A stretch of DNA of 32,000 nucleotides from an uncultured Nitrososphaerota archaeon (GTDB taxonomy: Archaea; Korarchaeota; Korarchaeia; Korarchaeales; Korarchaeaceae): contig CAYZRF010000021.1 in the NCBI GenBank assembly GCA_964480775.1, forward strand, positions 456-32,455, read 5' to 3'. Shown here piece after piece: positions 3,582-30,364 of the stretch; the stretch's first letter is position 1, and each line of letters opens with the position of its first letter. The notes beneath the pieces are model-generated. The model was not told the DNA's origin. It did not search any database and saw nothing but the letters and a program-made list of their open reading frames with translations. Made by a program: the position numbers and the translations under genes.

Positions 3582-3582
3582 A

Positions 3583-6046: not shown

Positions 6047-6055
6047 CTACTTGGT

Positions 6056-6337: not shown

Positions 6338-6609
6338 TTTCACCTCCCAGAGGGGGAAAGCTTGGAAAGGGTATTTAAGACGTCTCTTAGCAGAATACAT
6401 TGTTCTTGCAATCATTATTGGGCGTTTATGCTACTAAACACGTTGTTTTACTGATATCACTCATCAGAAAAACATAGGATATATTCAAGAGTAACAGGGT
6501 AGATATCCAAAGTTTTGCACTTAATTTATCATTTATTATCCCATCAAAAGGTTAATCTAGGAGGGGATTAGGACTAAAAGGATTCCTTTCTTCAAACTTT
6601 CTCATCAAC

Positions 6610-10645: not shown

Positions 10646-10648
10646 ATT

Positions 10649-12625: not shown

Positions 12626-12634
12626 ATAGATCCC

Positions 12635-13921
12635 TCAGAGCGTGCTTAATTCTGAAACATTCGTAGATATGTAGCGCTTGAATGGGAGAACCTCTACGAT
12701 CTCTCCCTCCTTATACCCCTCTACATCCTCAGGTACGATGAGAAATGCGTCCGCTTTTACCAATGAACTTGCAATTCCAGCACCGGAGATCCTAACAGGG
12801 ATTGCCAACCACTCATTTCCACTTCTCTTAAGCTTGACTCTAGCGAAATGCAAAATTCCTGGTCTTGAAGGTACCTTGCCCACAAGCCTAGCCCTAAGGG
12901 TGTTTATCATCCTCTCACCCTTAATCCCAAGAAATCTCTCAATTAAGGGGACAAGAAATAGCAATGCAGCTACGGCAGCAGATACAGGATAGCCTGGAAG
13001 ACCTATAAATGGCTTCCCATTTGAAAGAACTGAAAGCAGGGTAGGTTTCCCAGGCATAACCCCTACTCCATGAACGATTATCTTTGCTCCAAGTTTTTCA
13101 AGAGCATCTGGAACGAAATCGGATGTTCCAACGCTGGTTCCTCCGCTCGTTAGGATGACATCTGCCTCCTTGCACTCGCTTATTCTCCTTGCGAGTTCAT
13201 CTGCATCATCGTCTACAATTCCCTTGTAAGAAAAGAGACCCCCGTGTTCCTCTACAATTCCTTTAACGAGCCATCTGTTGGAATTCACAATTTTTCCTGG
13301 GGCTTCCTTATCTCCTACCTCAATTAACTCATGTCCCGTGCTTATCATGCCAATAACAGGCTTCTTACGAACCAAAACCTCTTTTTTGTTGATAGAAGCT
13401 AGCAAACCTAGTTCAAAGGCCCCTATTATGGTTCCCTTTGGGAGCAGGACTTCACCTGCCCTGATGTCCTCACCCCTCCTTGAAACGTTCCGGAACGGCG
13501 GAACTTGTTCATAGATTCTGACCATTCCACCACTTTCCTCAGAATTCTCCACCTCTACAACCGCATCGGCCCCTTTTGGCAAGACTGCCCCAGTGTGGAT
13601 CCTTACAGCCTCTCCAGCCCTGACTTCCAAGCTTATCTCCCTGCCAGCTTGAATTTCTCCAATGACTCTGAGTGCAATTGGAGAATGTTGGGATGCTCCG
13701 TATGTATCCTCAGCCCTGACGGCGTATCCGTCCATAGCTGCCCTGTCAAACGGCGGAACATCTTCTTGAGCTCTTATATCTTCAGCTAAAACCCTGTCTA
13801 GGGCATAATCTAGCCCTACGTACTCAGCCTCGGTGGGCTTTAGGTCAAGAGAACTCATGAAAGTTTCCAGAGCTTCTCTTACCTTCATGATCGTTCTGAA
13901 ACCCTTCCATTTGTGGGACAT
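12635..13921 (-). CDS. moeA: Molybdopterin molybdenumtransferase MoeA (stand-alone paralogue)
   Basis: Motifs seen: [38 protein letters not shown] and LPGYPVSA. Confidence 0.9.
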
Positions 13922-13974
13922 CTTGGAACATTTGCGAGTGCACTTATTACGTTTGATGTATTTATCATACTGAG

Positions 13975-14730
13975 ATGAAAGGAGGAACAGGTGGTGTTCT
14001 TACAACCAGAGATCTTATTAGATACGATAGACAACTTCTGATCATTGGTAAGGCTGGCCAGGAGAAACTAAAGAGAGCATCCGTTGCAATAGTGGGAATA
14101 GGTGGGTTGGGTAGCCCGGCTGCTTTCTACCTTGCTGGGGCTGGGGTGGGAAGGCTGATATTGATAGATCCTGAGAGACCAGAGCTGAGCAATTTGAACA
14201 GACAAATAATACATTGGGAAGGCGATTTTTCTCTTCCCAAAGCCCAGTCTGCCGCAGAGAAATTGAGAAAATTCAATTCTGACATCGTTATAGAGCCTAA
14301 ATCAGTCAAAATTACAAAAGAAAACGTTTCAGAAGTCTTAAGTGGGGTAGATGTGGTTGTTGATGGACTTGACAACTTCGAGACAAGGTACCTCCTCAAT
14401 GAGTACTGTTTGGAGCACGGAAAGCCATTTGTACACGCAGCAGTTAGGGGGTTGGTTGGTCAGGCAACGACAATCGTACCTCAAAGATCTCCATGCTTAA
14501 GGTGCATTTTTCCAGAGCCTCCAAAAGCTGAGAAAAAATTCCCGATTTTGGGGGCAACAGCAGGAACTCTCGGCTGTATTGAAGCGTTAGAAACGATTAA
14601 ACTGATAACTGGCTTTGGGAGACCTCTGACAGGGAGACTTCTCATAATAGACCTTGAGGACATGACTTTTAACCTGATAGGGGTGAAGAGGCGGCCAGAC
14701 TGTCCCGTGTGTGGAGGCCTCCATAGTTAG
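13975..14730 (+). CDS. moeB: ThiF/MoeB/HesA-family E1-like adenylyltransferase
   Basis: Motifs seen: RYDRQLLI, the nucleotide-binding loop VGIGGLGSPAAFYLAGAGVG, DNFETRYLLN and two CxxC pairs (CLRC, CPVC). No rhodanese domain is present. The symbol is given by context with the Moco genes; a ThiF or UbaA-type role is equally possible. Confidence 0.85.
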   Translation: MKGGTGGVLTTRDLIRYDRQLLIIGKAGQEKLKRASVAIVGIGGLGSPAAFYLAGAGVGRLILIDPERPELSNLNRQIIHWEGDFSLPKAQSAAEKLRKFNSDIVIEPKSVKITKENVSEVLSGVDVVVDGLDNFETRYLLNEYCLEHGKPFVHAAVRGLVGQATTIVPQRSPCLRCIFPEPPKAEKKFPILGATAGTLGCIEALETIKLITGFGRPLTGRLLIIDLEDMTFNLIGVKRRPDCPVCGGLHS

Positions 14731-16704: not shown

Positions 16705-16756
16705 TTAGATGGTTTTGGAAAACCGACTTTTTTACCCAAGTAGGTTCGATATCTTG

Positions 16757-17038
16757 ATGTTAAGGAGCAAGGTTTTAGAGGCAATAAAAGAGTTTAACGA
16801 ATTTAGAAGTCCAGAGGCAACAGCAAACTCGTTTTAATTAAAGATAATAGGATTATCGTTAGGATGAATGGAACCTATTGTAGAACATGTGGCCTCTATG
16901 ATTACTTTGAGGATCTTTCATGGAAAATCAAGGGATTACTTGAAAGCTAACGTAAAGATTCTGTCGACGAGAAGAATAGATCATTTCTCCTATGAAATCA
17001 TATATGAGGTGGAATCTCTTAGTAAAAGATCTAAATGA
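16757..17038 (+). pseudogene. Small CxxC protein gene interrupted by two compensating frameshifts (or two homopolymer sequencing errors)
   Basis: Three segments read as one coherent protein of about 93 aa. Frame A 16757-16825 gives MLRSKVLEAIKEFNEFRSPEATA. The -1 frame 16825-16947 gives KLVLIKDNRIIVRMNGTYCRTCGLYDYFEDLSWKIKGLLES. Frame A resumes at 16946-17038 with ANVKILSTRRIDHFSYEIIYEVESLSKRSK. Both switches fall at AAA runs (16825-16827 and 16943-16945). An alternative is an intact 56-aa ORF at 16868-17038. Confidence 0.4.
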
Positions 17039-18629
17039 GAAGCATCACCGCAAACGCAAGCAGAGAGAATATGAAAATCTCTCTAAAGGACGAGGTAAAG
17101 TGTCCTGTTCTAACAAGCCCCAAGGTTCCTCCCATCACTAACGTCTGAACAAAGGCTTGCATCATAATTCCTTCTCTGATTCTCTCTGCTTCATGAGGTG
17201 CGAGAAGAGGGATGTTTAGTATGTTCACTAACATGGCATAGGAACCTATAACTAGCATGAAAGAAAACATTGCAGTAAAGTAATTTCCCATTTTCTCGCC
17301 CTCCGTTTCGATCCAGAGTTCCCTCAACCTAACGGCAAATTCTGAAATTGATGAAAAAGCCTCCTTAAGATCGGCTCCAGCCTCCAAAGCGGTCATAATA
17401 AGCAAAGTTGACATTCTCGAAACGCTTAGCTTTTGCCTCTCAGCCATCCTCTTTAGAATTTCAGTATAAGGAAGTTTCAGTCCAGCCCAAGCCTTGACCC
17501 TGTTGGCGAAATCCTTCAAGGATTTGTATGTTATCTTCATGTATGTTATAGCGTCGCTAAAAGACCTTCCACTCCTTAGTTCAGAGAAGAGATCTTGAAG
17601 GAAAAGTGGGAAGTCAAAAGTCTCGCTTCTCAGCCTTTTTTCCTCCTTAAATATTTGCAAGAAGCCAGCTAAAGCCCCAAGGGAGGTAGAGATGGCTAAT
17701 CTTTGCCACAGATTGAGAGAAAGAATTGGAATCGGGGATTTAATCAGCTTTACCAAAATTCGTGGGGGTAACTTATGAATTAGAACTGTAAAAATAAAAT
17801 ATACAGCAAAGAAAACGGCAATAAAAGATAACCAGGCTTTTATGACGGTTCTTTTCTTAAAATAGAAGTACCTAGGGGCTAGAATCTTAAACAACAATAC
17901 GAAGAAAGGAGATGGGAGTACTGAAGTCATAAGGACAAGGTTGCTCATTCCTCCTCCTCCGAATCCAGAGACCAAAGACTGAAACGTGAACATCAACATC
18001 AACACAAATGGGAGGGCGGTGGACGTCAGAGTATAAACGATTAGGATCATCATCAGTCTTTCCATGCTACTTCTTACGTCCATCATGGTTTTCTCTACTG
18101 ACTCATCAAGTTCCAGCTTTAGCATTTCATCTATGGCTTCTCCTCTAGTGAAGTAGTAATCGTGCAGTCTCGAGTAGATTCTTTTCCATACGCCACTAGG
18201 ACATAGCCTGATGTTTGCCTCAAGCCCTTCTATTGTTCCAGCAGCTAACATTCTAGCTGATGCTGCTTGAAAATACTTTCTCACGTCAGTATCCTCTGCT
18301 ATGTTACTAATCGCCTTGAATGAAGAGCCTAAAGATTTGCCCACCTTTTGTAACATCCAGAGAGTAGCTAGATAAGCCCAGATATCCTTTTCAAGCTTGC
18401 TAGCTATATTCAGATAGGATAGAAAAGGGGTAAATAGCATTAACAGTGATGGAAAGATCACTATGAACATAAGACGTACAGGATCCCTCATATAGCCAGT
18501 ACGATAAAGAGCAGCAGCTATAGCCATCATAACGCCTCCAACGGAGGCGATTCTAAAGATAAACTCCTTCGGATCTTGGTCTGGTATCCCTGCTTTTATG
18601 AAGAACTCTTCATCGAAGAAGAGTACCAC
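17031..18629 (-). CDS. Full-length two-domain type IV filament platform protein (FlaJ/TadC/PilC-like)
   Basis: 532-aa polytopic protein with two repeated soluble helical modules, each followed by transmembrane (TM) helices. Its GTG start overlaps the ATPase stop by 1 nt (TAGTG). Confidence 0.75.
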   Translation of the reverse strand: MVLFFDEEFFIKAGIPDQDPKEFIFRIASVGGVMMAIAAALYRTGYMRDPVRLMFIVIFPSLLMLFTPFLSYLNIASKLEKDIWAYLATLWMLQKVGKSLGSSFKAISNIAEDTDVRKYFQAASARMLAAGTIEGLEANIRLCPSGVWKRIYSRLHDYYFTRGEAIDEMLKLELDESVEKTMMDVRSSMERLMMILIVYTLTSTALPFVLMLMFTFQSLVSGFGGGGMSNLVLMTSVLPSPFFVLLFKILAPRYFYFKKRTVIKAWLSFIAVFFAVYFIFTVLIHKLPPRILVKLIKSPIPILSLNLWQRLAISTSLGALAGFLQIFKEEKRLRSETFDFPLFLQDLFSELRSGRSFSDAITYMKITYKSLKDFANRVKAWAGLKLPYTEILKRMAERQKLSVSRMSTLLIMTALEAGADLKEAFSSISEFAVRLRELWIETEGEKMGNYFTAMFSFMLVIGSYAMLVNILNIPLLAPHEAERIREGIMMQAFVQTLVMGGTLGLVRTGHFTSSFREIFIFSLLAFAVMLLI

Positions 18630-20044
18630 TAAGCTCCCCTCCTAGCCCTTTCAACCCGCCTTCTTAGGTCTGCCACTTTCTCCTGATACTCTCTAACTAT
18701 CGTTGATCTTGGAACTCCTTCTTTTGCAGCGATTTCAATGAATATTTGGCTATTCTTTATTGGATCGCCTAAAAGCTCCCTACCCCTCTTCCTAACAAAG
18801 ATGTCTCTTAGAATAACGTCGTCGGTTGTTGAATCATAGCTCAATTCAGCTATCCTCACAACCCCCCTAAAGTTTCCTTCTTTCCTAAGCAGCGCTGCCA
18901 CCTTAAAATCAGCTATCTGCTCGTTTGTGAGATTGATGGGATCACCTCTAAGCCTCGCTAAGACTCCCTCTATGACGCTTGCATGGAATGTCGTGAAGCT
19001 GGTGTGTCCAACGTGTATGAACTGAACGAGCAATCTGACCTCGGCTCCCCTCGACTCTCCGACGACTACGTAATCGGGTCTCATCCTGAGCACGTCTCTC
19101 AGCAAATCGGGAATCTCCATTCCCTTGACTCCCATTCCTGGTGGTTGACCTATGAGAGAGGTCCAATTCTTGTGTTCAGGAAGGTATATTTCAGGGGTAT
19201 CCTCGACCGTGACGATATGAGCGTGCTTTGGAAGGAGTGAGAGAAGGGCATTGAGGAAGGTTGTCTTCCCTGAGCCAGTTTCACCAACTATAAACCCTGA
19301 AATTCCATGTTCGGCCAGCAACCACAAATATGCAGCCGCTTCTACTGAAACGGCTCCCCAAGAGATTAGTTGTTCAATCCTCGGTCTTACAACAAACTTC
19401 CTTATGGTAAAGGTAGTTCCACCTTCGCTGACCGCAGGTCCATAAAGGGCGTGAACCCTAGATCCATCTGGTAGTTTTCCCTCTAGCCTAGGAACAGCAA
19501 GCGACACCTGCTTTCCTACTCTTTCCGCTAGTTTGAGCACGATTTGTCTGGCTTCTTCCTCTGTTAACTCTATGTTTGTCTCTAACCAAGTCCCTTTCCC
19601 AGCTAGGTAAACAAAAAGCTTTCTACCCCCTCTCGCTGGTAAAGTCACATCTTCTACATAAGGATCCTTCATAATGGGATCGAGTTTCCCCAAACCCTCT
19701 ATATCTCTTCTCAAATAGAATATAATAGAATTTAGTAAATCTTCATCATATTTCTTCTTGAATTCCTTTAGAGTTCTCTTTGCTGCCCACTCATAAAGTT
19801 TGGTAAGCTTGTTTAGATCCTCAAAACTTATCCTAGAAAGAACGTAATCCTTTGCTTTCTCAAGTATTTCTTTATCTGGCATTGGGGGCTCTATAACAAT
19901 GTATTTATCACCCTTGATACCCCTCCATGCAATTCCTTCAACCAGCTCAATGACTTCTTTTAGATCTTTAAGCTCAAGTTTCTTCCTCTTTTCCACAAGC
20001 GCCTGCTTTTCAGGCGTCGCTACCTGTTTCATGTGAAGGTGCAC
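18629..20044 (-). CDS. Archaeal type IV filament assembly ATPase (FlaI/PilB/GspE family); the likely start is the ATG at 20032
   Basis: Motifs seen: Walker A IVGETGSGKTTFLNALL, Asp box IVTVEDTPEI, Walker B RPDYVVVGESRGAE and His box GHTSFTTFHA. A TAGGTG SD lies about 10 nt upstream of the ATG at 20032. Confidence 0.9.
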   Translation of the reverse strand: MHLHMKQVATPEKQALVEKRKKLELKDLKEVIELVEGIAWRGIKGDKYIVIEPPMPDKEILEKAKDYVLSRISFEDLNKLTKLYEWAAKRTLKEFKKKYDEDLLNSIIFYLRRDIEGLGKLDPIMKDPYVEDVTLPARGGRKLFVYLAGKGTWLETNIELTEEEARQIVLKLAERVGKQVSLAVPRLEGKLPDGSRVHALYGPAVSEGGTTFTIRKFVVRPRIEQLISWGAVSVEAAAYLWLLAEHGISGFIVGETGSGKTTFLNALLSLLPKHAHIVTVEDTPEIYLPEHKNWTSLIGQPPGMGVKGMEIPDLLRDVLRMRPDYVVVGESRGAEVRLLVQFIHVGHTSFTTFHASVIEGVLARLRGDPINLTNEQIADFKVAALLRKEGNFRGVVRIAELSYDSTTDDVILRDIFVRKRGRELLGDPIKNSQIFIEIAAKEGVPRSTIVREYQEKVADLRRRVERARRGA

Positions 20045-20285
20045 CTACTCCCATAATGTGATAGACCGGGTTGATTTAGATTATTGAACAAATAAAATGC
20101 TGTGGATCAACATTAAAATCTACCTATGTTTACTAGAAATTACTTATATTTTACAAAATATGATAAAGAAATTCTAGATAAAAGCCAGAAACAGTTGATT
20201 CTAGTAGAAAACAATTCATATAGAATTTTTTGGTTAAATTAACTTATTTTTAAGTTTTCCAAATAGATGGTGATCTTTGATAAGT

Positions 20286-20319
20286 AAAAAATGAAACCTA
20301 AGTAAGAAAAGATAAAAAA
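20286..20319 (-). terminator. Oligo-T tracts downstream of the pilin gene (candidate archaeal intrinsic terminator)
   Basis: On the minus strand, one T6 run (20319-20314) lies 17 nt after the stop at 20336-20338. A second T6 run lies at 20291-20286. Confidence 0.4.
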
Positions 20320-20335
20320 GAGATGAAAGGAGGGC

Positions 20336-20785
20336 CTACCCTCCCCTGTAGAGGTATTCGGTCTGGGTGCCACCAGGACCATAGACTATTATAGAGTAAC
20401 TCTGTGTAGCACTGTAGTTACCTAAGTTTACAGTAAGCTCTGCTACTCCATTTACTTCTAAAACGTCATCGGAACCGCTAACCGCGCCAGCGAGATTGCT
20501 TACATCAAGCTTCTGGTTGTCGATAAAGACTTGCCAAGCGGCAGTACTTCCCGCGCCTGAAATATCATTGGGCCCTAAGTTCTTTACGTATATTATGCCA
20601 TTACTTGATCCCATTCCTGATACTGAAAGTACGGCCAGCGTTGTCTGCCCACCAACGGCCGAAGTCCTTCCTAAGGCGCCAAAGATGTAGCTTCCAATTG
20701 GACTAAAGATTAGTAGGGCTAATGCCACTCCTATTACTAGAATTATAACCTCGACGGCAACTCTCGATATTCCTGCTCTTTTCAT
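20336..20785 (-). CDS. Type IV pilin-like protein with a class III signal peptide (pilin paralogue 1)
   Basis: The ATG at 20785 has an AGGTG SD about 7 nt upstream (the track uses the GTG at 20794). The N-terminus is MKRAG|ISRVAVEVIILVIGVALALLIF. The core shares YVKNLGPNDI and WQVFIDN with the 24504-24974 protein. The gene has its own promoter and terminator. Confidence 0.75.
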   Translation of the reverse strand: MKRAGISRVAVEVIILVIGVALALLIFSPIGSYIFGALGRTSAVGGQTTLAVLSVSGMGSSNGIIYVKNLGPNDISGAGSTAAWQVFIDNQKLDVSNLAGAVSGSDDVLEVNGVAELTVNLGNYSATQSYSIIVYGPGGTQTEYLYRGG

Positions 20786-20835
20786 ATCCCACACCTTCTA
20801 TTCTTTTGTTGACCATGTAGTATACTAATGGAGAG

Positions 20836-20844
20836 TATAAAAAT
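20836..20844 (-). promoter_or_regulatory. TATA box candidate for pilin paralogue 1 (minus-strand ATTTTTATA, followed by CTCTC)
   Basis: This AT-rich octamer resembles the archaeal TATA consensus. It lies about 50-60 nt upstream of the ATG at 20785. The core is almost identical to the one at 25001-25008. Confidence 0.45.
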
Positions 20845-20850
20845 CCTACC

Positions 20851-20890
20851 ATGAAAATCCATGAAAAACCATGAAATACTGTGAAATCTT
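20851..20890. repeat. Four exactly phased 10-bp tandem repeats (atgaaaatcc / atgaaaaacc / atgaaatact / gtgaaatctt)
   Basis: Read directly. The units start at 20851, 20861, 20871 and 20881, immediately upstream of the TATA candidate. The core is TGAAA(T) on the plus strand, which is (A)TTTCA on the coding strand. Confidence 0.8.
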
Positions 20891-20981
20891 TTTCTAAACA
20901 CATCAAACTTTAAAATTAAAGCATTAGAGCGTTTTTCCTTTTATCCAAGAATTTGGAATTTTTTCAAATTAGAAACTGTTT

Positions 20982-21422
20982 TTATCCCGAGGGTTCAGTT
21001 CCTACCAAGTTTGAGACTATGACGAAGTAGGACCCAATGGTCTCATTATAAAACAAGAGGAAGATGATCTCTCCATTATAGACTTTGGGAGGGGCTTTAA
21101 CAGGAACAGTGGAGAAAAAGGTAGTATTAGCCATAACAGAATGCGTACCTGCAACTAGCCTAACGACCACACTGCTATTGTAGACCATAATCTCAGCAAC
21201 TTTGTCACCCTCTAACTCTATGTTAACCACTCTTTGACCAGAGAGAGCCCCACCCTCCTTCATTCTGGACATAAAAGATATCTCAGACGCCACAACTTCT
21301 GCTATAGTTTGAGCCTCCTTTCTCAAATTCAATTCGAAGAAATATGGCCTCAAAAACAAGAAGAACGAAGCTAGGATAAGGCCTATTAGTGCAAGAGCAA
21401 CCCAGATGACCGCTCTCCTCAT
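20982..21422 (-). CDS. Hypothetical N-terminally anchored protein, last gene of the six-gene pilin-like operon
   Basis: The N-terminus is MRRAVIWVALALIGLILASFFLFL. Sequons NSS, NTT and NET are present. An SD GGGGAGGC lies inside the end of the upstream gene. Confidence 0.6.
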   Translation of the reverse strand: MRRAVIWVALALIGLILASFFLFLRPYFFELNLRKEAQTIAEVVASEISFMSRMKEGGALSGQRVVNIELEGDKVAEIMVYNSSVVVRLVAGTHSVMANTTFFSTVPVKAPPKVYNGEIIFLLFYNETIGSYFVIVSNLVGTEPSG

Positions 21423-21426
21423 GATA

Positions 21427-21918
21427 TCAGCCTCCCCAATTTATCCGTATGTATCCAACATGCGAGGTCGTGTTGTAGAAATAGTAGTCGATCGTAACAT
21501 AGTTCTGTCTACCAGACGACGCGAGTCCAGTCATGGTAAGATTCCATCCTCTCTTAAGGTAAACTGAGAGAATTATTTTGTTCGTAGTTGGCTGAAGGGT
21601 TACGTATGTGATCGAAAGATTTGAAAGGGTAACATTCCTCTCATATCGTGGGGGATTCATTACAACTACGTTTACAGAATTGTTCCCATAGATTACAACT
21701 ATATCGTCAGGTAATACTATGGATAGTGTTAGTGAGGCCCCCACTCCTGATGCCACAACCCCTTCAATGCTATTTGCAAGAGAATAAGCTATTCTTTTAC
21801 CTGCCTCCAGACGCTGTTCGGCCTGTCTTGTTCTTATGTATGGATACGTTAACATTAGGCCAGCCACTATTATAGCAGTTGCCAGAACTAGGGCCACCAC
21901 CGATTCTACTACTTCCAT
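21427..21918 (-). CDS. Pilin-like or anchored protein (163 aa)
   Basis: The N-terminus is MEVVESVVALVLATAIIVAGLMLTY. Five N-x-S/T sequons are present. It is translationally coupled on both sides. Confidence 0.65.
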   Translation of the reverse strand: MEVVESVVALVLATAIIVAGLMLTYPYIRTRQAEQRLEAGKRIAYSLANSIEGVVASGVGASLTLSIVLPDDIVVIYGNNSVNVVVMNPPRYERNVTLSNLSITYVTLQPTTNKIILSVYLKRGWNLTMTGLASSGRQNYVTIDYYFYNTTSHVGYIRINWGG

Positions 21919-21921
21919 GAT

Positions 21922-22962
21922 CTATCCCCTAGGTGCAACGGCCTCAACCTCTATTCTCACCGTGTAGGGGAATATGAAGAATGGTATATTGGCTCTACTT
22001 GATGGATTTCCAACCATTAGAACCGAAGCATTATAAGGACCTTGAGCGAAAATGATGTCATCAATATCCATTGGCAGACCAATGCTCGTTATGTTTTCTC
22101 TAATGCTCGTCACATTCATTACGTTGCAACTTCTACCAAAGATCGTATCTCCAACATAAAAGTGATATGCGGGCTGTGCTGTTTCATTGACCAGCAGCTG
22201 ATTCTCCCCTCTCCCTGTGGGATCTCCATTATCTAAGTCAATCCACATCTCTCTCGTAGCGAAGTTCTCTCCGTTCGGTCCAGTGTAGTCAACGAATGCA
22301 TGATATTTTCCTGCGGGAGCACCTTCTTGAATTCCTACATCTATTGTAATCTTACAAATTCCATTAATTAGCTGGGCTCCTTCTGTTGTAATCAAAGTAG
22401 TATCAGCATAAAGAGTTACCTGGGCATTTCCTCCCTGAACAGGAAGACCGTCTTTTGTATATGCTACGATATAAAATCGTGCACTCTCTCCTTCCCAGTG
22501 ATTACCATCTATTTGTCTTTTGTAGTATGGCTCTCTGTAAGAGAGAACATACCAATGTATTTGGGTGTCATTGCTCCCAGGCATCACTGGAAATGTAACA
22601 AGCACCACATCTCCACGCGGTCTAGATGCGTTTGAGCAATTTATGTAAAACTTTGTCTCTGATCCATTCAGGTAAACTAAATACATGCTGACATTGAACC
22701 AAATGCCCGTTCTATTCCAAGCAAGCGTACAAATCTCTCCAACCTTGTTCTTAAACTCTCTTAGTGTCATATTTCCATTCATCACAAAGTCTCTGGAATA
22801 TATGTCACCTATGACGCTGGCTATGCTCCTTGCTAGAACTCTTTCAGAAGCCGTCTCTTGTTTAGTCACCACCCTAGTGAAGGAGACAGCAGTGGCTATA
22901 GCTATCGTTACTAGGACCACGGCCAGTATGACTTCAATAGGTTCACTAACCATTTCATCCAC
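21922..22962 (-). CDS. Large pilin-like or anchored extracellular protein (346 aa; probable start is the ATG at 22953)
   Basis: The N-terminus is MVSEPIEVILAVVLVTIAIATAVSF. It carries 11 N-x-S/T sequons. A GGAGGTGGA SD lies inside the last codons of the upstream gene. Confidence 0.7.
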   Translation of the reverse strand: MDEMVSEPIEVILAVVLVTIAIATAVSFTRVVTKQETASERVLARSIASVIGDIYSRDFVMNGNMTLREFKNKVGEICTLAWNRTGIWFNVSMYLVYLNGSETKFYINCSNASRPRGDVVLVTFPVMPGSNDTQIHWYVLSYREPYYKRQIDGNHWEGESARFYIVAYTKDGLPVQGGNAQVTLYADTTLITTEGAQLINGICKITIDVGIQEGAPAGKYHAFVDYTGPNGENFATREMWIDLDNGDPTGRGENQLLVNETAQPAYHFYVGDTIFGRSCNVMNVTSIRENITSIGLPMDIDDIIFAQGPYNASVLMVGNPSSRANIPFFIFPYTVRIEVEAVAPRG

Positions 22963-23446
22963 CTCCTGACACTATTACCCTAACCTCGCACATTGTTCCG
23001 TTTGATAGCCGAGCTAGAGCTCTTCTTACACCTCTAACCTGGCCTATTATGTTTGAACCAACTATCAAGTTAGGAGAGGGAGGGAAAGAGTGTGAAGTCT
23101 CGTTGTAATAATAGAAAGCAATTCTAACATCAAACTCAGTTAGAGAAAGGCCTGCTTTTATCATACTATAATTCAAGGATAACAAGAGATTGAGTTTGTT
23201 AAGGTCTATTACATATGGATATACAAGTTCACCAGCATTACCCATTTCAGAATAAGCCAAACCTATTGAGGGGGGCGAAACAGACCAATTTCCTGGATTT
23301 TCCAATAGCTGCCTGACAACTAGATCTGCCTTATGCTCAATTCCCTCGCTTATTTCTGCACCAAGCGTTCTAAGTTGCCAAATCCCATAAAAGCCATAAA
23401 TCGATAGTATTAGCGTTGATACGATGAAAGCTATTATTTGCTTCAC
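22955..23446 (-). CDS. N-terminally anchored protein (163 aa)
   Basis: The GTG start has GAGGGGGG upstream. The N-terminus is MKQIIAFIVSTLILSIYGFYGIW. Four sequons are present. Confidence 0.65.
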   Translation of the reverse strand: MKQIIAFIVSTLILSIYGFYGIWQLRTLGAEISEGIEHKADLVVRQLLENPGNWSVSPPSIGLAYSEMGNAGELVYPYVIDLNKLNLLLSLNYSMIKAGLSLTEFDVRIAFYYYNETSHSFPPSPNLIVGSNIIGQVRGVRRALARLSNGTMCEVRVIVSGGG

Positions 23447-23507
23447 TTTTCTAAGCCCCCCTCTATTTCTCCTTAGCTAATGTTAGCCCATTCTCCAGCT
23501 GGTAGGC

Positions 23508-24500
23508 TCAGTCAGGTGGCTCTGGGGGAGGTGGTAGTTCTGGCGGCTCAATGCCGAATAGATCTGCACCCATTGATCTCCAAATCCAGTAGTACTCCAC
23601 TCCCTCCTGATACCCTTCATAACTGATCCGATATGCCTCGTATGGATCGTCGCAGTAGTAAACATCTATAGTTGCCTCAGAACCAGGCCTGTCTTGTGGA
23701 TTTATGATTATTTGATCGGTCTCCATGCCAGATTTCTTGTACCTTATGTTAAAATATGCAATTCCACCGAGACCTGTTAGACCTGGCGTACCTCCAAGAA
23801 CAACCGTATCAGAAGCAAAGGGACCAAATATTCTTTTTATCTGGAAGGGCTCCAACGATATGTATTGACCCCAGAGAATCCTCCCATCTGTGTCAAAATC
23901 GAACTTGATCTCATAACTATTGCCTTCAAGGTTGAAAATTATTCCATGGAAGGTAATTACCTGTCTCCTTCCACCTATGAACGGTAAGGAACTCTGCATC
24001 CAGAAGCACCATTTAGAGGGTAATATCCCGAACGGAGGCAAACCTTCTCCTCCTTCGTCGCCTCCTCCGCCCCCTCCACCACCGCCACCTCTGCCTTCAC
24101 CTATCCTGTATTGAATGTCAGTTAGGTTGGTGCCTAGTATGCCAGTGAAATAGGTATCCCCTTTAGCAAGGGTGTAAATTACGATAACGTTTTCTCCGCC
24201 ACCACCAATCAAAGGCACGGTAATGTTGTGATACCACAGCTCTACCTGCTTAGTTAACATCTTCTCGCTAAGATACTTAAGGTGGTTATCTATGAACGAA
24301 GCCTGAACATCAGAACCCCCAGGCAGCTCGGCTGCCGTATTGACGACTGTTGTCATGTAGGCTAGGGTGTCCACAAAATCCTCATGCACTCCTTCCTCAA
24401 GTTTTACTTCCGGCGGGCTCATGTAAGTAGCCAGCGTCATTATGAGCACTGTTATTACGAAGCCTACCAGCAAGATCGTTCCTGCGCCTTTTCTATTCAT
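23508..24500 (-). CDS. Pilin-like protein (330 aa) with an internal 10-Gly run and a Pro-rich C-terminus
   Basis: The N-terminus is MNRKGAGTILLVGFVITVLIMTL. It contains GEGR-G10-DEGGEG (Gly codons at 24060-24089). The C-terminus is PPELPPPPEPPD. A GGAGGAGGA SD lies 6 nt upstream of the ATG at 24500. Confidence 0.7.
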   Translation of the reverse strand: MNRKGAGTILLVGFVITVLIMTLATYMSPPEVKLEEGVHEDFVDTLAYMTTVVNTAAELPGGSDVQASFIDNHLKYLSEKMLTKQVELWYHNITVPLIGGGGENVIVIYTLAKGDTYFTGILGTNLTDIQYRIGEGRGGGGGGGGGGDEGGEGLPPFGILPSKWCFWMQSSLPFIGGRRQVITFHGIIFNLEGNSYEIKFDFDTDGRILWGQYISLEPFQIKRIFGPFASDTVVLGGTPGLTGLGGIAYFNIRYKKSGMETDQIIINPQDRPGSEATIDVYYCDDPYEAYRISYEGYQEGVEYYWIWRSMGADLFGIEPPELPPPPEPPD

Positions 24501-24503
24501 ACT

Positions 24504-24974
24504 TTATCCTCCTCCTGGAGACCACCCAGCATAAGCAATCGTGGCTCGGGGACCAAAAACTTTGATCGTATGCGAAACATTAGCATTGATTGCCTCCGAG
24601 AGAGTTATATTAATGGATTCTCCAACCCTTAAAGATCCTGAAGCAGGATCTAGCGAACTTATAGTCTTGAACTCATCATCTATAAAAACCTGCCATTCCG
24701 AGGGACCAGAGAATTCAATGTCAGAAGGACCCAAGTTCTTCACATAAACCTTTGCATATGATCCCGCTGTTGCATTCCCAGGATCAAATGCCATTATCTG
24801 AATGTTTGATTTAGGGGTTCCGGCCTCAATTTTTCTGTAACTACCCCTAGTAGCCCCCAAAACCACTTGATAGACTAAGACGGCCAAGGCAATACCAAGT
24901 ACCATTAGTACAATGGCCGTAGTAACCTGAGAGACTCCTCTCCTTCTTTTGCGAAGAACTTGCTGGGTGGTCAT
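24504..24974 (-). CDS. Type IV pilin-like protein with a class III signal peptide (pilin paralogue 2), first gene of the operon
   Basis: The internal ATG at 24974 gives MTTQQVLRKRRRG|VSQVTTAIVLMVLGIALAVLVY. The track's longer version starts at 25034, upstream of the TATA candidate at 25001-25008. The protein shares YVKNLGPSDI and WQVFIDD with paralogue 1. Three sequons are present. Confidence 0.75.
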   Translation of the reverse strand: MTTQQVLRKRRRGVSQVTTAIVLMVLGIALAVLVYQVVLGATRGSYRKIEAGTPKSNIQIMAFDPGNATAGSYAKVYVKNLGPSDIEFSGPSEWQVFIDDEFKTISSLDPASGSLRVGESINITLSEAINANVSHTIKVFGPRATIAYAGWSPGGG

Positions 24975-25000
24975 CCTAACATTAGGTGTATCCTTTGAGA

Positions 25001-25008
25001 ATAAAAAT
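25001..25008 (-). promoter_or_regulatory. TATA box candidate for the pilin operon (minus-strand ATTTTTAT, followed by TCTC)
   Basis: It lies about 27-34 nt upstream of the ATG at 24974, consistent with a leaderless or very short-leader mRNA. The core is nearly identical to the one at 20836-20844. Confidence 0.4.
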
Positions 25009-25046
25009 GCTTTTGTATGCTTAGAATTTCGCATATAACCACGCTT

Positions 25047-25101
25047 TGAAATGAAATGAAATAATAATGAAATATTAATGAAATTCAGTGAAATATGAAA
25101 T
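25047..25101. repeat. Seven copies of TGAAAT in 55 bp
   Basis: Read directly. Copies start at 25047, 25052, 25057, 25068, 25079, 25089 and 25096, with spacings of 5, 5, 11, 11, 10 and 7. The array lies upstream of the TATA candidate in the divergent pilin/peptidase intergenic region. Confidence 0.8.
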
Positions 25102-25319
25102 AAATATATAGCATTTAATTTAAAGTTTTTTCGAGATAGAAATAATTACTACTTCCTAATCCGTAGACAGATCATGGACTGAGAAGATAACAATAACAGG
25201 TGAAATAGTTGTTAGTTAAAAAATTTGAAACTTTTGCTTTCTCGCTGATACCCTTACTCCTTTCTGAGCACAAGATCTTTACTCCCAATTTATTAATTAT
25301 CGCTTGATACCTTGTCGAG

Positions 25320-26057
25320 TTGATGCCTAGAATAGAGCAAATTAGAATAACTGCCTCTTTATTAGTTCTCTTGATTGCAACCCTACAGGACATTAAAGAT
25401 AGAGAAGTTGATGATGTAATCTGGCTGGTTGGTCTCTCTATAGGAGGAATTTTAGATGCCTTCCTCTTGTTTTCCGCGACACCAACAACACAGGAAATTT
25501 TACAGTATGTGAGATTCTCCATTCCTTTTCTGTTTATTATACTGACTTCATGGCGCTTCAAGCTCATGGGAGGCGCCGATATACTTGCTTTCATCACTCT
25601 GGCGATACTTCAACCGAGTCATCCGCTAGGAAAGTGCATGTTTCCTCCGGCTTTCTGTACGATGCTGTACTCAAACTTTCTTATGCTTCTTGTTCCGTTT
25701 TCTTTTCTAATATGGAACGTGAGGCTTATACTAAAGGGAGAGAATATTTTTGATGGATTTAAAGAATCTTCTCTCAGAAAATTCATAGCAAGCCTTTTTG
25801 CAATAGCAATTCAAGCAGAAAGTGCTAAGAATTTCAAATTTTTCTCAGTGGCTCAGGAAGGGGGCTCCCCCGAGAAGAAATTTAGACTCGTCTCAGCACT
25901 CTCGATTCCAGAAACGAAAGAAGAACTGCCGAAGACAGAAGAACATCTAGTGTGGATCTGTCCTTCGATCCCCATGATTCCATTTATTCTAGCTGGGTAC
26001 GTGCTAACCATATTGATAGGGGACCCCGTGCTATTGTTGATAGAGATCTTCAAGTAG
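25320..26057 (+). CDS. Archaeal prepilin/preflagellin peptidase, FlaK/PibD type (A24 family); the probable start is the ATG at 25323
   Basis: Catalytic motifs TLQDIKDREVDDVIW and KLMGGADILAF are present in a polytopic protein. A hydrophilic insert (ESAKNFKFFSVAQEGGSPEKKFRL...) precedes the last TM helix. A TATA-like TTTATTAATTA lies about 30 nt upstream. Confidence 0.8.
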   Translation: MMPRIEQIRITASLLVLLIATLQDIKDREVDDVIWLVGLSIGGILDAFLLFSATPTTQEILQYVRFSIPFLFIILTSWRFKLMGGADILAFITLAILQPSHPLGKCMFPPAFCTMLYSNFLMLLVPFSFLIWNVRLILKGENIFDGFKESSLRKFIASLFAIAIQAESAKNFKFFSVAQEGGSPEKKFRLVSALSIPETKEELPKTEEHLVWICPSIPMIPFILAGYVLTILIGDPVLLLIEIFK

Positions 26058-26069
26058 ACATGAAGCAGC

Positions 26070-26885
26070 TTACTTTCTGGTAGCCTCTCCACCAACATCC
26101 TTAACAAGAGATAGAAGCAAACCCTCTGCTTTTTTTACCAGAGCTAGTGCTTCATCCCTTTTTTGAGCCCTTGCCGACAAGTGAATCAGTAATAGAGGAA
26201 CTCCCAACTCCATCCCCCTTGGATGGCTTTTCACGTAGACCTCGGGATACTTTTTTACAACTTCATCGATGAGAGGAGCTATCGACGACTCAGGAACACC
26301 AGAAATATATAATTCTGTCTCGGCTACTGTTAATTGAGTTCTTGCCCTCAATTCGTCCATCAAATTGTTGAAGATGGCCTTCATCTCCTTCGGAACTCCT
26401 GGCAAAGAGATTATCAGACTATCTCCTTCCTTGATCATTATTCCAGGAGCCGTGCCCGCTGGATTTTCAAGAGGAATAGCTCCTTCAGGTAGTTTTGCCA
26501 TCTTTATCCTGTGTTCTGTGATTTCCATCCCAGCCAACTCATACTTTCTTTTCACAATCTCTAGAGCTCTCTCATTAATTTCCCACGCCCTGCTAAGGGC
26601 ATAAGCCAGCGCTTCACTCGTTTTATCATCATAGGTTGGTCCTAAGCCACCTGTGGATATTATGAGATCTGCTCCTGCGGACAGAGCCGTCTTAAATGCC
26701 CAAGAGATCTCTTCAAAATCGTCCATCACAGTTATACCTCTTTTTACCCTGTAACCTATCGAAGTGAGCTGTTTTGCGAGCCAAGAAAAGTTTGTATTTA
26801 CTACCTTGCCAATAAGCAATTCGTTTCCAATGGATATTATCCAGGCCTCAACTTCATTTGAAGCTTTGGAATCCATCTTTCTCAT
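26070..26885 (-). CDS. cinA: CinA-like protein with an N-terminal MoCF-binding (MoaB/MogA-fold) domain
   Basis: Motifs seen: IISIGNELLIGKVVNTN, ISTGGLGPTYDDKT and SLPGVPKEMK. At 271 aa, it appears to lack the C-terminal PncC deamidase domain of long CinA proteins. Confidence 0.8.
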   Translation of the reverse strand: MRKMDSKASNEVEAWIISIGNELLIGKVVNTNFSWLAKQLTSIGYRVKRGITVMDDFEEISWAFKTALSAGADLIISTGGLGPTYDDKTSEALAYALSRAWEINERALEIVKRKYELAGMEITEHRIKMAKLPEGAIPLENPAGTAPGIMIKEGDSLIISLPGVPKEMKAIFNNLMDELRARTQLTVAETELYISGVPESSIAPLIDEVVKKYPEVYVKSHPRGMELGVPLLLIHLSARAQKRDEALALVKKAEGLLLSLVKDVGGEATRK

Positions 26886-27474: not shown

Positions 27475-28155
27475 TTGATCAAATTGCACAAAACTGCTGT
27501 AGTGATACCCGCGTACAATGAAGCCCAGTTCATAGCAGACGTTGTTTCAAGGGCTAAGAAATATGTAGACAAAGTTATAGTTGTAGATGATGGTAGTACA
27601 GATGAAACAGCAAGATTAGCTGCTGAAAAAGGTGCGATAGTGATAGTGCACGAGAAAAACATGGGAAAATGGATTGCACTCCAAGACGGATTTAAAAAAG
27701 CGGTTGATATATCAGATCTAATCGTCCAGATGGATGGAGATGGGCAGCACGACCCTGAAGAGATACCTAAGTTCATAGCGGCCTTAGAAGAATTTGATGT
27801 AGTCCTAGGGTACAGGTCTAAGAAAGGAATGCCCATCATAAGGAAAATCTCTAATTTTATTACTACAGCAATGTTAAGGCTCTTTTTCTCGTTACAAGTT
27901 TCAGATTCACAATGTGGATATCGGGCATACAAAAAGGATGCTTTAAGAAAACTAATGAAGGTTAAGGCAAAAGGATTTGAGGGGGAAACTGCTTCTCTGA
28001 TCTTGGCTAAAAGACTGGGTCTAAAGATAGGAGAAGTTCAAATAAAAACAATTTACGGTAGGGAGAAATCCAAGATGAAAGTCATAAGAGATACTTACAG
28101 GTTTCTAAGTACTGTTTTATCCATGAAAATTAAGGCGACAAAAGGAGAGATTTGA
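27475..28155 (+). CDS. GT2-family glycosyltransferase (dolichyl-phosphate hexose synthase-like)
   Basis: Motifs seen: VVIPAYNEAQFI, VIVVDDGSTDETA, the DxD-type MDGDGQHDP and SQCGYRAY. Confidence 0.85.
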   Translation: MIKLHKTAVVIPAYNEAQFIADVVSRAKKYVDKVIVVDDGSTDETARLAAEKGAIVIVHEKNMGKWIALQDGFKKAVDISDLIVQMDGDGQHDPEEIPKFIAALEEFDVVLGYRSKKGMPIIRKISNFITTAMLRLFFSLQVSDSQCGYRAYKKDALRKLMKVKAKGFEGETASLILAKRLGLKIGEVQIKTIYGREKSKMKVIRDTYRFLSTVLSMKIKATKGEI

Positions 28156-28247
28156 TTTAGAATTTTTCTTGATTCTTATCAACAATTCTTTCGACTCACT
28201 GTTTATTCAACCTCTATCCTCCACCAAAAAGGCCACATGGAGATACT

Positions 28248-30101
28248 TTATCCATTGGAACACAATATGTTCTTTCTAACTACACTACCTCCCGGGCCAT
28301 GTATTACGATCTCAATGGGCATCTTCTCTTCTCGACAAGAAATTTCCAAGATGATTTCATCACCTGGCCCGATAGTTTTATCCCTAGAGGAAAGGGATTC
28401 TACTCCTAAAACATCGCAAGGTGTGCCTCCAACATATACAACCCAGTTTTTCGGATCTAATACAACTTCTAAAGGTGCTGATTGTTCTTTGCATACAAGT
28501 TTAACCTTAAGGGGATTTAGCTGGCACGATATAATCTCGAAAACAGGAGGTTCACACCCAACAACTGGCTGATAGGCCACAAACCTCGAAGTTCTGAAGG
28601 CTTCTACAAAGCAAGGTAGAGTGAGCCTATACTCTGGTGGCATGTCTAAGCTTACAGCTATCAAGTGAGCTCCCTCCCTCAGGGAACTGTCCCAGGGCTG
28701 TGCTACTTTTCCTACAACGTTGCATCCCACTACTTCTAAGTAGTTCGTTACTCCCATGAAGCCAAGCAAAACAACCTTTTTTCCAGATGCTAAATCACGA
28801 AACCTTCTCATGTCATTCCAAATAGCCCACTGATCTTCTCTAATGACGGGATTTGTCAAAAACCAAGCTATGACGATAATTAATGCTATGGGAGCCATAT
28901 TAGACAAACGAAGAAGTGAAAGAATTTTTCTTAGAGATAGAGCCGAAATTACAGAAAAAGGTAAGGAAAGCTGGAGAACGAACCTAATGCTGAAGCCAAT
29001 AATCGTTATTTGGGCAAAAGAGAGATATGCCAAGGTTAAGTATCCTAAAGTGTAGAGCAACAGCCATTTCTCGCATTCATCCTTGAATCTAAGTAGAATA
29101 AGTCCTGATAATGGGATTGCAACCCAAAGACCCAAATCTAGTTCCATCTTCTTAATGAGCGATAGTAAGGAGTAGATTACTCCTAAAGGATTCAAGTTGA
29201 TGGAAGAAATGGAAAGCTCTTCTCTTATGTAAGTAACCAGCTCGAAAATAACTCCAGGTATCAATAGAGTGGTTATGAAAGCAGAAACCAAAGGAAGGGC
29301 GAAAAACAGCTTCTTTTTTCTAAGAGCGACTATCAACAAAAAAACCAGCAGATACCAAGAAGATATATGCGCAAGAGGAAGCAGGGCTCCTATCAGAACA
29401 CACCAGACGAGCTTGCGTTTAAGCAAAGAATAGACTAAGAATAAAGATATAACATCACAAACCAAATTTGCATAGGTTCCAACATCAAAAAGATGTCTAA
29501 TTCCAGAAGAAATTGGAAGAAGGCTCCAAGCAGAGAGAAGAGCTATTCTTTCACCATAAATTTCCCTTATTATCATGTAAACAAGCCCGGCTTCAACTGG
29601 AATCAAGGAAGAGAGAATCAGCCTAAATGCAAAAACCCAGCCATCGTAGTCCACAACGGATTTAATTGCTCCTCCAGCCAAATGAATTAGGAAAGGGTAT
29701 GTGTGAATGACTTTACCGTTTTCTGCATAATTGATGGACGCCAAGAAGTGAAATGGCTCATCAGGATTTATCCATGAAGCTACTAACGGTCTGTAATATA
29801 TAGACAGAAGAACACCCAAGATATGTGGAATAACAGCGTACGCTAATCCTTTAGCCTCGGATCTTGATACTTCAACCGTAGACAAACGCCAAGAGGAGAA
29901 AATGGCAACGATAGACATAGGATAAATCAACAGAGGGAAAATCCTGAGTAAAGGAACAGCTAAAGTTAGCAATAAGAAACCCATAACAGGAGATATAACT
30001 ATGGATTCTTCAAATTCAGCATTAAACAGCATGTTTGCTACGGAAAATCCTCCAAATAATACGAAGATTGCAATCGCTGCTAAGGAAAATATCAATGCCA
30101 C
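28248..30101 (-). CDS. 617-aa polytopic membrane protein with a C-terminal soluble domain; candidate GT-C-fold glycosyltransferase
   Basis: About 13 hydrophobic segments are followed by a hydrophilic C-terminal domain of about 190 aa. The GTG start has a GGAGA SD. It sits among glycosylation genes. No WWDYG-type AglB/STT3 motif was found. The CDS itself is well supported; the functional call is weak. Confidence 0.55.
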   Translation of the reverse strand: MALIFSLAAIAIFVLFGGFSVANMLFNAEFEESIVISPVMGFLLLTLAVPLLRIFPLLIYPMSIVAIFSSWRLSTVEVSRSEAKGLAYAVIPHILGVLLSIYYRPLVASWINPDEPFHFLASINYAENGKVIHTYPFLIHLAGGAIKSVVDYDGWVFAFRLILSSLIPVEAGLVYMIIREIYGERIALLSAWSLLPISSGIRHLFDVGTYANLVCDVISLFLVYSLLKRKLVWCVLIGALLPLAHISSWYLLVFLLIVALRKKKLFFALPLVSAFITTLLIPGVIFELVTYIREELSISSINLNPLGVIYSLLSLIKKMELDLGLWVAIPLSGLILLRFKDECEKWLLLYTLGYLTLAYLSFAQITIIGFSIRFVLQLSLPFSVISALSLRKILSLLRLSNMAPIALIIVIAWFLTNPVIREDQWAIWNDMRRFRDLASGKKVVLLGFMGVTNYLEVVGCNVVGKVAQPWDSSLREGAHLIAVSLDMPPEYRLTLPCFVEAFRTSRFVAYQPVVGCEPPVFEIISCQLNPLKVKLVCKEQSAPLEVVLDPKNWVVYVGGTPCDVLGVESLSSRDKTIGPGDEIILEISCREEKMPIEIVIHGPGGSVVRKNILCSNG

Positions 30102-30364
30102 TCTCCATCGATTATAATTTGAACTAAAGTCATAATTCTATCTGACTCACAAAAGCCCATGTTTAAAGCAACGTCACACGGATAGTGAAAATTGAATCAC
30201 ATTTCAATTAGTGCCTAGAAACTTTCTTTCTCTTGTCTTGGGTCTTTTCAGTAGTAAAATATCTCGTGAGCCTTCAGTAGGGCATTGTACAACAAGACTG
30301 ATCCGCTTTAGGTTTGATTTCAAAATTTTTATTTAGCTAATTAACTTGGAAAATGGAATAAGCA

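Follow-up and report, generated by a model that had tools for sequence, protein, structure and literature searches.

Which type of surface filament is specified by the ten open reading frames (ORFs) at positions 17031-26057 of a 32,000-nucleotide stretch (i.e. the window) of contig CAYZRF010000021.1? The DNA comes from an uncultured archaeon of hydrothermal origin that belongs to the TACK group and whose relatives are labelled as Thermoproteota, Thermoprotei or Korarchaeota. Nine of the genes are on the minus strand and the tenth, encoding a peptidase, is on the plus strand. The products are an assembly ATPase, a platform protein, a prepilin peptidase, pilins A and B, and accessory proteins designated F146, F163a, F346, F163b and F330 (Table 1). 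On the family assignments, the locus probably resides on the chromosome and serves to build an archaeal type IV pilus of the non-rotary kind, most likely an adhesive filament of the cell surface. An initial annotation of the window had proposed a second type IV filament locus, and this proposal is upheld by the core families, by pilins homologous to the solved pilin 8FK7 and by the recurrence of the ten families in three related genomes.

The ATPase, the platform, the A24 peptidase and a filament subunit make up, on family assignment, the core set of an archaeal type IV filament (TFF), with the activity of the peptidase being predicted. The ATPase matched Pfam T2SSE (E-value of 2.6e-28) and contains a Walker A motif (i.e. 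GETGSGKT). FlaI was the best NCBIfam model at 269.8 bits (cut-off of 550) followed by BasE at 180 bits (cut-off of 1000), and the best PDB matches were GspE of A. fulgidus (2OAP, 230 bits) and FlaI of S. acidocaldarius (4II7, 215 bits). The enzyme is of a minimal type that lacks the extra PilB3_N and PilB3_C domains. Its clade comprises some 12 clusters (formed at 90% identity) that share at least 59% identity and derive exclusively from uncultured archaea labelled Thermoproteota. Beyond this clade, identity falls abruptly from ≥59% to 47% and then to 37%, with haloarchaeal PilB3-type (i.e. system 2) and Bathyarchaeota pilus ATPases being the closest outside enzymes at ~37% identity. Scanning the genome collection with patterns back-translated from the ATPase alignment, which amounted to general Walker A motifs, retrieved ATPases of bacteria and DPANN archaea but not the close clade.

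The platform had been described as a full-length, two-domain protein of the FlaJ/TadC type and this description was confirmed by two matches to Pfam T2SSF. Residues 343-468 scored 25.9 bits, above the gathering score, and residues 87-213 scored 15 bits in this protein but 26-27 bits, above the gathering score, in three orthologues. An internal duplication was not detected when the protein's N-terminal half was compared with its C-terminal half by hhalign, whereas separate Pfam scans did show both domains. The score against the NCBIfam ArlJ model was 30.5 bits (cut-off of 400), and the identity to the orthologue in the closest relative (i.e. L001) was 82%. Similarly, the annotation of a divergent FlaK/PibD-type peptidase was corroborated by matches to Pfam Peptidase_A24 (E-value of 3e-7) and Arc_PepC_II (1e-8) and by an alignment with the solved structure of FlaK (3S0X, 3.5e-9) that runs end to end over residues 13-239. 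The motifs QDIKDRE (i.e. QDxxxRE) and GGAD are located at both positions of the catalytic aspartates of FlaK. The score against the NCBIfam FlaK model was 64 bits (cut-off of 330).

Pilins A and B are paralogous (32% identity, E-value of 3e-14; 99.9% by hhalign). A joint profile of the pilin family matched the flagellar-like type IV pilin of P. calidifontis (8FK7) with an E-value of 4e-9 across the full length, including the K-G|hydrophobic N-terminus, and the separate profiles of pilins B and A matched the same structure at 4e-7 and 9e-5, respectively. The hhalign comparison of the pilin family with 8FK7 returned a probability of 93.6% at an identity of only ~19%. The joint profile reached FlaG at an E-value of 0.005 only, behind 8FK7, and with either paralogue family alone 8FK7 was the best match and FlaG was not reached. 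Four proteins of the broader pilin family carried Pfam Pilin_N, and the A/B profile produced 58 matches at E-values of ≤1e-3 among 1.84 billion cluster representatives.

The two pilins exhibited different patterns of conservation. As compared to its L001 orthologue, pilin A was 98% identical over the first 50 residues and 51% identical over the remainder, which looks like the classic pattern of a major pilin, and a related locus (L084) carries four pilin A-like genes. In contrast, pilin B exhibited 82% and then 87% identity over the same portions, a uniform level as found for the ATPase and peptidase. Of the earlier claim of two major-pilin paralogues, the paralogy stands but a major role for both is not supported, as only pilin A exhibits major-pilin conservation. 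We infer from these patterns that pilin A is the bulk subunit, with pilin B and the small leaderless proteins probably acting as low-abundance structural partners, either as priming or tip subunits or as a membrane-anchored scaffold.

Linkage between these genes was assessed from their distribution in relatives. The same ten gene families were present in L001, L003 and L084 with a shuffled order and with one block inverted in L084, and L085 and L086, which are more distant, also contained most of the families. That the families stay together although their order has changed is good evidence for a functional link. Homologues of the accessory proteins were labelled Thermoprotei and Korarchaeota. 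Synteny of the flanking molybdenum-cofactor genes is retained in the relatives and the guanine-cytosine (GC) content of the locus is unremarkable, indicating that the locus is chromosomal and not on a mobile element.

The two pilins belong to different predicted transcription units. The six genes from pilin B to F146 had been annotated as a Shine-Dalgarno (SD)-coupled operon headed by a paralogous pilin, and this was borne out by the pilin paralogy, by gaps of 1-4 nt (save for one of 61 nt) and by a GGAGG-like SD motif before every internal start. The pilin A gene has its own TATA-like TTTTTATA box upstream, and a hairpin with a nine-pair stem (i.e. AGGGGAGGG-TAGG-CCCTCCTTT), the best terminator-like hairpin of the region, is located on its stop codon and is followed by T runs. 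Box and hairpin together make a monocistronic transcript, as claimed initially, plausible. Pilin A ends in RGG and these codons form the stem of the hairpin. The operon proteins end in WGG, SGGG, PGGG, PRG and RRGA (junctions at 18629-18650, 21422-21440, 21918-21935, 22953-22975 and 24500-24520); these C-terminal glycines arise because the last codons double as the GGAGG-type SD of the next gene, a dual-coding by-product of translational coupling.

Arrays of a TTTCAY repeat with a period of 10-11 bp are located immediately upstream of the two pilin units' TATA boxes, with four copies before pilin A (10-bp period) and at least six before pilin B. The paired motif TTTCAY-N3-6-TTTCAY was detected six times in the window as compared to an expected 0.18 matches, and 6/6 were within the two pilin upstream regions. 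The pilin A array and TATA box are conserved in L001 and L002 and the pilin B array is partly conserved, with the L001 arrays being at 9205-9240 and 5055-5125 of that locus; the arrays were absent from the GC-rich relatives L003 and L084. This distribution suggests that one regulator serves both pilin units in this sub-lineage, with the array as a candidate shared operator.

The accessory proteins were then considered together with the pilins. Each of these seven small proteins contains a single N-terminal hydrophobic segment, in agreement with the annotation of seven pilin-like, N-anchored products. A class III-type K/R-G site precedes the helix in 3/7 (i.e. KRAG|ISRV in pilin A, RRRG|VSQV in pilin B and NRKG|AGTI in F330), whereas the other four open directly with the helix (MEVVES... 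in F163a, MVSEPIE... in F346, MRRAVIW... in F146 and MKQIIAF... in F163b). Anchoring N-termini were found throughout but a recognizable cleavable leader was lacking in four proteins. Cleavage of the remaining N-termini is predicted from the combination of K/R-G and helix and from the alignment with 8FK7.

None of the five accessory proteins matched a Pfam or NCBIfam model. A Pfam scan of 34 accessory orthologues produced a single match, to DUF7266 (3.7e-5) in a distant putative member of the F146 family (L086:9613-10023), and a literature search for DUF7266 found nothing. Orthologues of F146 and of F163b were each present in L001, L003, L084 and L085. Profile comparisons linked F146, F163a and F346 weakly through the N-terminal region, with F146 being related to F163a across the N-terminal helix (60% by hhalign). 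The F163a family consists of 17 clusters and the F346 family of 11 clusters among 5.8 billion proteins. These five accessory families are small, conserved, lineage-restricted and devoid of database annotation.

Structural models were examined for two of these proteins. The AlphaFold2 model of F163a, with a predicted local distance difference test score (pLDDT) of 88 and a predicted template-modelling score of 0.75, consists of a helix at residues 2-57 (56 residues) and a nine-strand beta domain, and is confidently predicted to have a pilin-like 'lollipop' shape. No neighbour of this protein was found in the PDB by Foldseek (best E-value of 0.18) or by sequence search, and the model did not match the FlaF/FlaG fold in the Foldseek search of the PDB. 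The F346 model contains a helix at residues 3-58 (56 residues), an alpha/beta module and a beta-sandwich at residues 145-239 with pLDDT of 70-86, for which Foldseek returned generic MG2/immunoglobulin (Ig)-like domains only. F346 carries 11 N-glycosylation sequons. Pilin B and four accessory proteins exhibited sequon densities of 19-32 per 1000 residues versus 0-8 in cytoplasmic neighbours, which fits with surface exposure. F330 is conserved only in an N-terminal module of ~120 amino acids (52% identity to L001 over the first 50 residues, 27% over the remainder). This module is followed by a ten-glycine run at residues 138-147 (window 24060-24089) and the protein ends with a proline-rich tail at residues 319-329 (i.e. 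PPELPPPPEPP); three poly-Gly runs are present in the L003 orthologue. The ten-glycine run has the appearance of a flexible hinge that joins a pilin-like stalk to a variable head, and F330 and F346 would be the exposed, adhesive or variable parts of the system.

Several observations weigh against the interpretation of the locus as a pilus with multiple pilin-like subunits. A FlaFind-type expression matched 0/7 of the N-termini, a result that was taken as a limit of the pattern used and not as evidence against processing. The four leaderless proteins may never be processed or built into a filament. No homology of the accessory families to known minor pilins was detectable in Pfam or NCBIfam or, for F163a, in Foldseek and sequence searches of the PDB. 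The F346 model is only moderately confident, with an overall pLDDT of 61. Finally, the pilins share a superfamily with archaellins and FlaG such that the filament could structurally resemble a flagellar filament.

The leaderless N-termini are central to the most substantial alternative, namely that F146, F163a, F163b, F346 and possibly also pilin B belong to the assembly machine as membrane-anchored components instead of being filament subunits. Such proteins could act in the manner of ArlF/ArlG, as a pseudo-periplasmic scaffold or an S-layer anchor, or in that of PilN/PilO, as an alignment complex. We regard this as possible but doubtful; if true, the role of half of the locus would change but its identity as a pilus system would stay. 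Apart from the missing leaders and K/R-G sites of the four proteins, the uniform conservation of pilin B (82-87%) would be unusual for a surface-exposed subunit and this pilin produced the strongest, albeit sub-threshold, ArlG match (E-value of 5.6e-5). FlaF and FlaG, too, are N-anchored proteins with a beta-sandwich that derive from pilins (PMC10334743, PMC4425475). Conversely, the continuous 56-residue N-terminal helix of the F163a model is typical of filament-core subunits, no Foldseek match of F163a to FlaF, FlaG, PilN or PilO structures was found in the PDB, and pilin B alone matches the pilin 8FK7 and not FlaG. Absence of a leader is also not peculiar to this locus, as pilin-like proteins without a class III motif have been reported for system 2 among other archaeal multi-pilin loci (Sivabalasarma and Albers, 2026 preprint, 10.64898/2026.04.22.720090).

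A more radical reading of the same proteins is that the locus represents an unclassified TFF branch, in which flagellar-like pilins function without FlaH and the conserved, leaderless pilin-shaped quartet, with a head fold that lacks a solved relative, forms a new base, stator or priming complex. This is unlikely, but would provide an independent view of how pilus systems gained archaellum-like accessory modules.

The archaellum draws its ATPase, platform, FlaK-type peptidase and filament subunit from the same superfamilies as the present locus, and N-anchored accessory proteins of ~150 amino acids occur in both systems. However, searches of the locus proteins with Pfam and NCBIfam (E-values of ≤0.1) found no match to ArlH/FlaH, ArlX/FlaX, ArlCDE/FlaCDE or ArlF/FlaF. 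A Walker A pattern (G....GK[ST]) was present in the ATPase only, both at this locus and at five related loci (six loci), indicating that there is no FlaH, and no KaiC-type Pfam match was found within 10 kb in the relatives. The ArlI, ArlJ, ArlG and archaellin models all scored far below their cut-offs, and an archaellum was rejected on these grounds, in accord with the initial annotation. One element of that annotation, the absence of a recognizable FlaG, needs a slight qualification from the profile searches. Sub-threshold ArlG matches were obtained for pilin B (23 bits) and pilin A (17.5 bits) against a cut-off of 110, the best solved relative of both being the pilin 8FK7. Pilin B also matched arch_flag_Nterm (E-value of 0.028), and both pilins produced sub-threshold matches to Pfam Arch_flagellin (17 bits for pilin A; cut-off of 29.5). 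These weak ArlG and archaellin matches arise because archaellins, FlaF/FlaG and the 8FK7-type pilin lineage share ancestry, and the FlaG signal is best taken as a mark of this ancestry and not of a stator.

A reduced or alternative archaellum, i.e. a flagellar-like and possibly rotating filament without FlaH in which lineage-specific proteins replace FlaF, FlaG and FlaX, is very unlikely. This proposal draws on FlaI being the best NCBIfam model for an ATPase of minimal type, on the FlaK type of the peptidase and on the three N-anchored proteins of ~150 amino acids, the size of FlaF/FlaG. Against these points, FlaH/KaiC is missing from the locus and from its surroundings in the relatives, the FlaI score is half of the cut-off and the ATPase is no nearer to FlaI than to GspE of A. 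fulgidus. Furthermore, the filament of P. calidifontis itself does not supercoil and has been classed as a pilus (Kreutzberger et al. 2023, PMC10334743), and pilin A is, by a reading of its sequence only, Gly/Pro-rich after the hydrophobic helix (SPIGSYIFGALGRTSAVGG) without the polar helix extension of archaellins. A short pseudopilus for surface display or secretion, like the bindosome or a type II secretion system, is extremely improbable: the second-best NCBIfam rank of BasE and the many pilin-like proteins per one bulk pilin are outweighed by a BasE score far under the cut-off, by the lack of genes for a class III-signal substrate-binding protein or an ATP-binding cassette (ABC) transporter in the locus, and by the major-pilin pattern of pilin A with its extra copies in a relative.

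For a non-rotary pilus, a five-step mechanism can be proposed, of which steps one to three are based on the family assignments together with established type IV pilus biology and the last two go further by inference. The FlaK/PibD-type aspartyl peptidase would cleave off the short, basic leader that pilin A, pilin B and F330 carry. A hexameric ATPase docked on the two-domain platform would then draw the pilins out of the membrane via their N-terminal helices and polymerize them. Pilin A would be the bulk subunit, as suggested by a strong promoter and a terminator of its own, by a helix that is invariant and a head that evolves fast, and by the extra copies in a relative. Pilin B and F146, F163a, F163b, F346 and F330 would act as low-abundance pilin-shaped subunits that prime assembly and cap or functionalize the filament, the likeliest exposed adhesive parts being F330, with its poly-Gly hinge and hypervariable C-terminus, and F346, with its Ig-like domain and 11 sequons. 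Finally, one DNA-binding regulator may control both transcription units via the phased TTTCAY repeats upstream of both pilin promoters.

The strands of the ten ORFs were as annotated initially and the coordinates almost so (Table 1). F346 had been annotated as a protein of 346 amino acids; the ORF was retained but the start was not, as the most likely start is ATG 22953, in agreement with the NCBI call P0121, with GTG 22962 as an alternative. The start of pilin B at 24974 agrees with its orthologues, and that of the ATPase is either GTG 20044 or ATG 20032. Look-ups by exact sequence returned no entry for the ATPase or for P0121.

Table 1. Position and properties of the features of the putative pilus locus (window coordinates; aa, amino acids)
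Feature	Position	Strand	Properties
Platform, 532 aa	17031-18629	-	Polytopic membrane protein, TadC/FlaJ/PilC type; two T2SSF domains
Assembly ATPase, 471 aa	18629-20044	-	VirB11/GspE/FlaI secretion-ATPase family; T2SSE, Walker A
Terminator-like hairpin	20326-20347	-	At pilin A stop codon, followed by T-rich runs
Pilin A, 149 aa	20336-20785	-	Candidate major pilin; N-terminus KRAG|ISRV
Pilin A promoter region	20841-20886 (repeats 20851-20886)	-	Four phased TTTCAY repeats adjoining TTTTTATA box
F146, 146 aa	20982-21422	-	Leaderless N-anchored accessory protein
F163a, 163 aa	21427-21918	-	Leaderless pilin-like accessory protein
F346, 343 aa	21922-22953	-	Large pilin-like accessory protein; Ig/MG2-like beta-sandwich
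F163b, 163 aa	22955-23446	-	Leaderless N-anchored accessory protein; conserved LLExPGNWS motif
F330, 330 aa	23508-24500	-	Class III-type N-terminus NRKG|AGTI; poly-Gly hinge; fast-evolving C-terminal part
Pilin B, 156 aa	24504-24974	-	N-terminus RRRG|VSQV; first gene of accessory operon
Pilin B operon upstream region	25045-25100	-	At least six phased TTTCAY repeats before TATA-like boxes
Class III signal (prepilin) peptidase, 245 aa	25320-26057	+	FlaK/PibD type; divergently transcribed

The claim of two different filament machines in the window, with a distinct type of peptidase for each, is borne out in outline. A Tad/Epd-like filament set is present on the minus strand at 3108-9118 and includes a 157-aa A24 peptidase with a weak EppA match, two small TadB/C-like membrane proteins, a diverged secretion ATPase, a polytopic membrane protein, a MinD/TadZ-like ATPase and a 119-aa Flp-like prepilin with an ...ESG|LTQTTETALLIAATIAAFFALV segment. 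Beside this set, on the plus strand at 783-2876, are genes for four small N-anchored proteins (125, 117, 93 and 339 aa) without a family match. No homology to the accessory families of the pilus locus was found for the N-anchored proteins at 783-2876 or 6056-6415.

Molybdenum-cofactor genes at 9085-14730 and 26070-26885 separate and flank both filament loci. These encode MoaA, a MoCF_biosynth protein, two MoeA paralogues (one fused to a PBP-like domain), a ThiF/MoeB protein and a CinA-like MoCF_biosynth protein. The MoeA pair adjoins the pilus locus in L001 and L003 and also an unrelated Bathyarchaeota pilus ATPase in L088. A glycosylation-type cluster at 27475-31306 adjoins the locus and encodes a GT2 glycosyltransferase, an NAD-dependent epimerase and a 617-aa polytopic membrane protein (28248-30101). 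The latter has no family match and is 35% identical to a 621-aa protein of L084 whose gene adjoins pilin genes and glycosyltransferases (L084 15533-20865); it may be a partner in pilin glycosylation. Convergent with the platform gene, a small conserved gene on the plus strand (16709-16950) is split into ORFs of 42 and 28 aa but is unbroken in L001 (13036-13293, 85 aa), indicating either a pseudogene formed by frameshift or deletion or an assembly error. No RNA families were found in the whole window with Rfam.

The diversity of type IV pili in archaea is great, and studies outside of the Sulfolobales, haloarchaea and methanogens cover very few of them. Of the known systems, the flagellar-like pilus of P. 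calidifontis, with its ten-stranded, non-supercoiling packing, provides the closest solved pilin, both pilins of the present locus being full-length homologues of its subunit. Both loci are from TACK archaea and both contain an ATPase and a TadC-type platform. The P. calidifontis locus spans ~5.4 kb and, unlike most others, carries a KaiC/FlaH-like gene (PMC10334743). In contrast, no such ATPase was detected here by Pfam, NCBIfam or P-loop search, and the present locus adds five N-anchored accessory proteins and its own peptidase. The Pyrobaculum 'flagellar-like' pilin family is thereby extended to an uncultured hydrothermal lineage and to a different genetic setting without KaiC. In addition, five conserved but unannotated accessory families are defined, one of them with a confident pilin-like model that has no structural neighbour, and a candidate shared operator for pilin regulation is offered. 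These results should help annotation and the modelling of evolution from pilus to archaellum, and do not overturn current understanding.

Membership of the Aap, Ups or Bas systems was rejected, with UpsA at 12.9 bits (cut-off of 130) and BasE, as above, far from its threshold; each of the seven pilin-like and accessory proteins contains at most four cysteines, AapX being an iron-sulphur protein. The initial annotation had likened the accessory operon to a 'bacterial-style' minor-pilin complex. Bacterial complexes (i.e. GspH-K, or FimU-PilVWXE with PilY1) do resemble the locus in combining one abundant pilin with an operon of low-abundance pilin-shaped proteins and a larger variable protein. 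However, four members here lack a leader peptide and no match to GspH-K, FimU or PilVWX was found with Pfam, NCBIfam or Foldseek of F163a. Membership of a bacterial tip complex was rejected, the likeness is an analogy only, and the description was not sustained, since it has no support from homology and multi-pilin loci have already been described in archaea.

Examples of such loci are the euryarchaeal PilB4-type (clade 2) loci, subclades 4C and 4F and the Thermoproteales 4G loci (Makarova et al. 2016, PMC4858521). The published archaeal plan consists of an ATPase, TadC, a PilA-like major pilin, several small proteins predicted to be minor pilins and a larger, Ig-like protein, pilin or adhesin, that varies in length (PMC4858521; 10.64898/2026.04.22.720090). 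The overall plan of the present locus matches this one, F346 fits the description of the variable-length Ig-like pilin, and the closest ATPases outside of the clade are the haloarchaeal PilB3-type enzymes of system 2, whose euryarchaeal loci are marked by a clade-2 ATPase and by signature accessory pilin families such as arCOG02911. Differences are that the accessory families match no Pfam or NCBIfam model, save for the one DUF7266 match, that the ATPase is without PilB3_N/PilB3_C and that no MinD/FleN gene is present inside the locus. As multi-pilin archaeal loci have already been described, the locus is a lineage-specific variant of a known machine and not a new machine. What is particular to it is the combination of 8FK7-family pilins, a single fused platform, a minimal ATPase and a dedicated peptidase with five unannotated accessory families and without KaiC or MinD.

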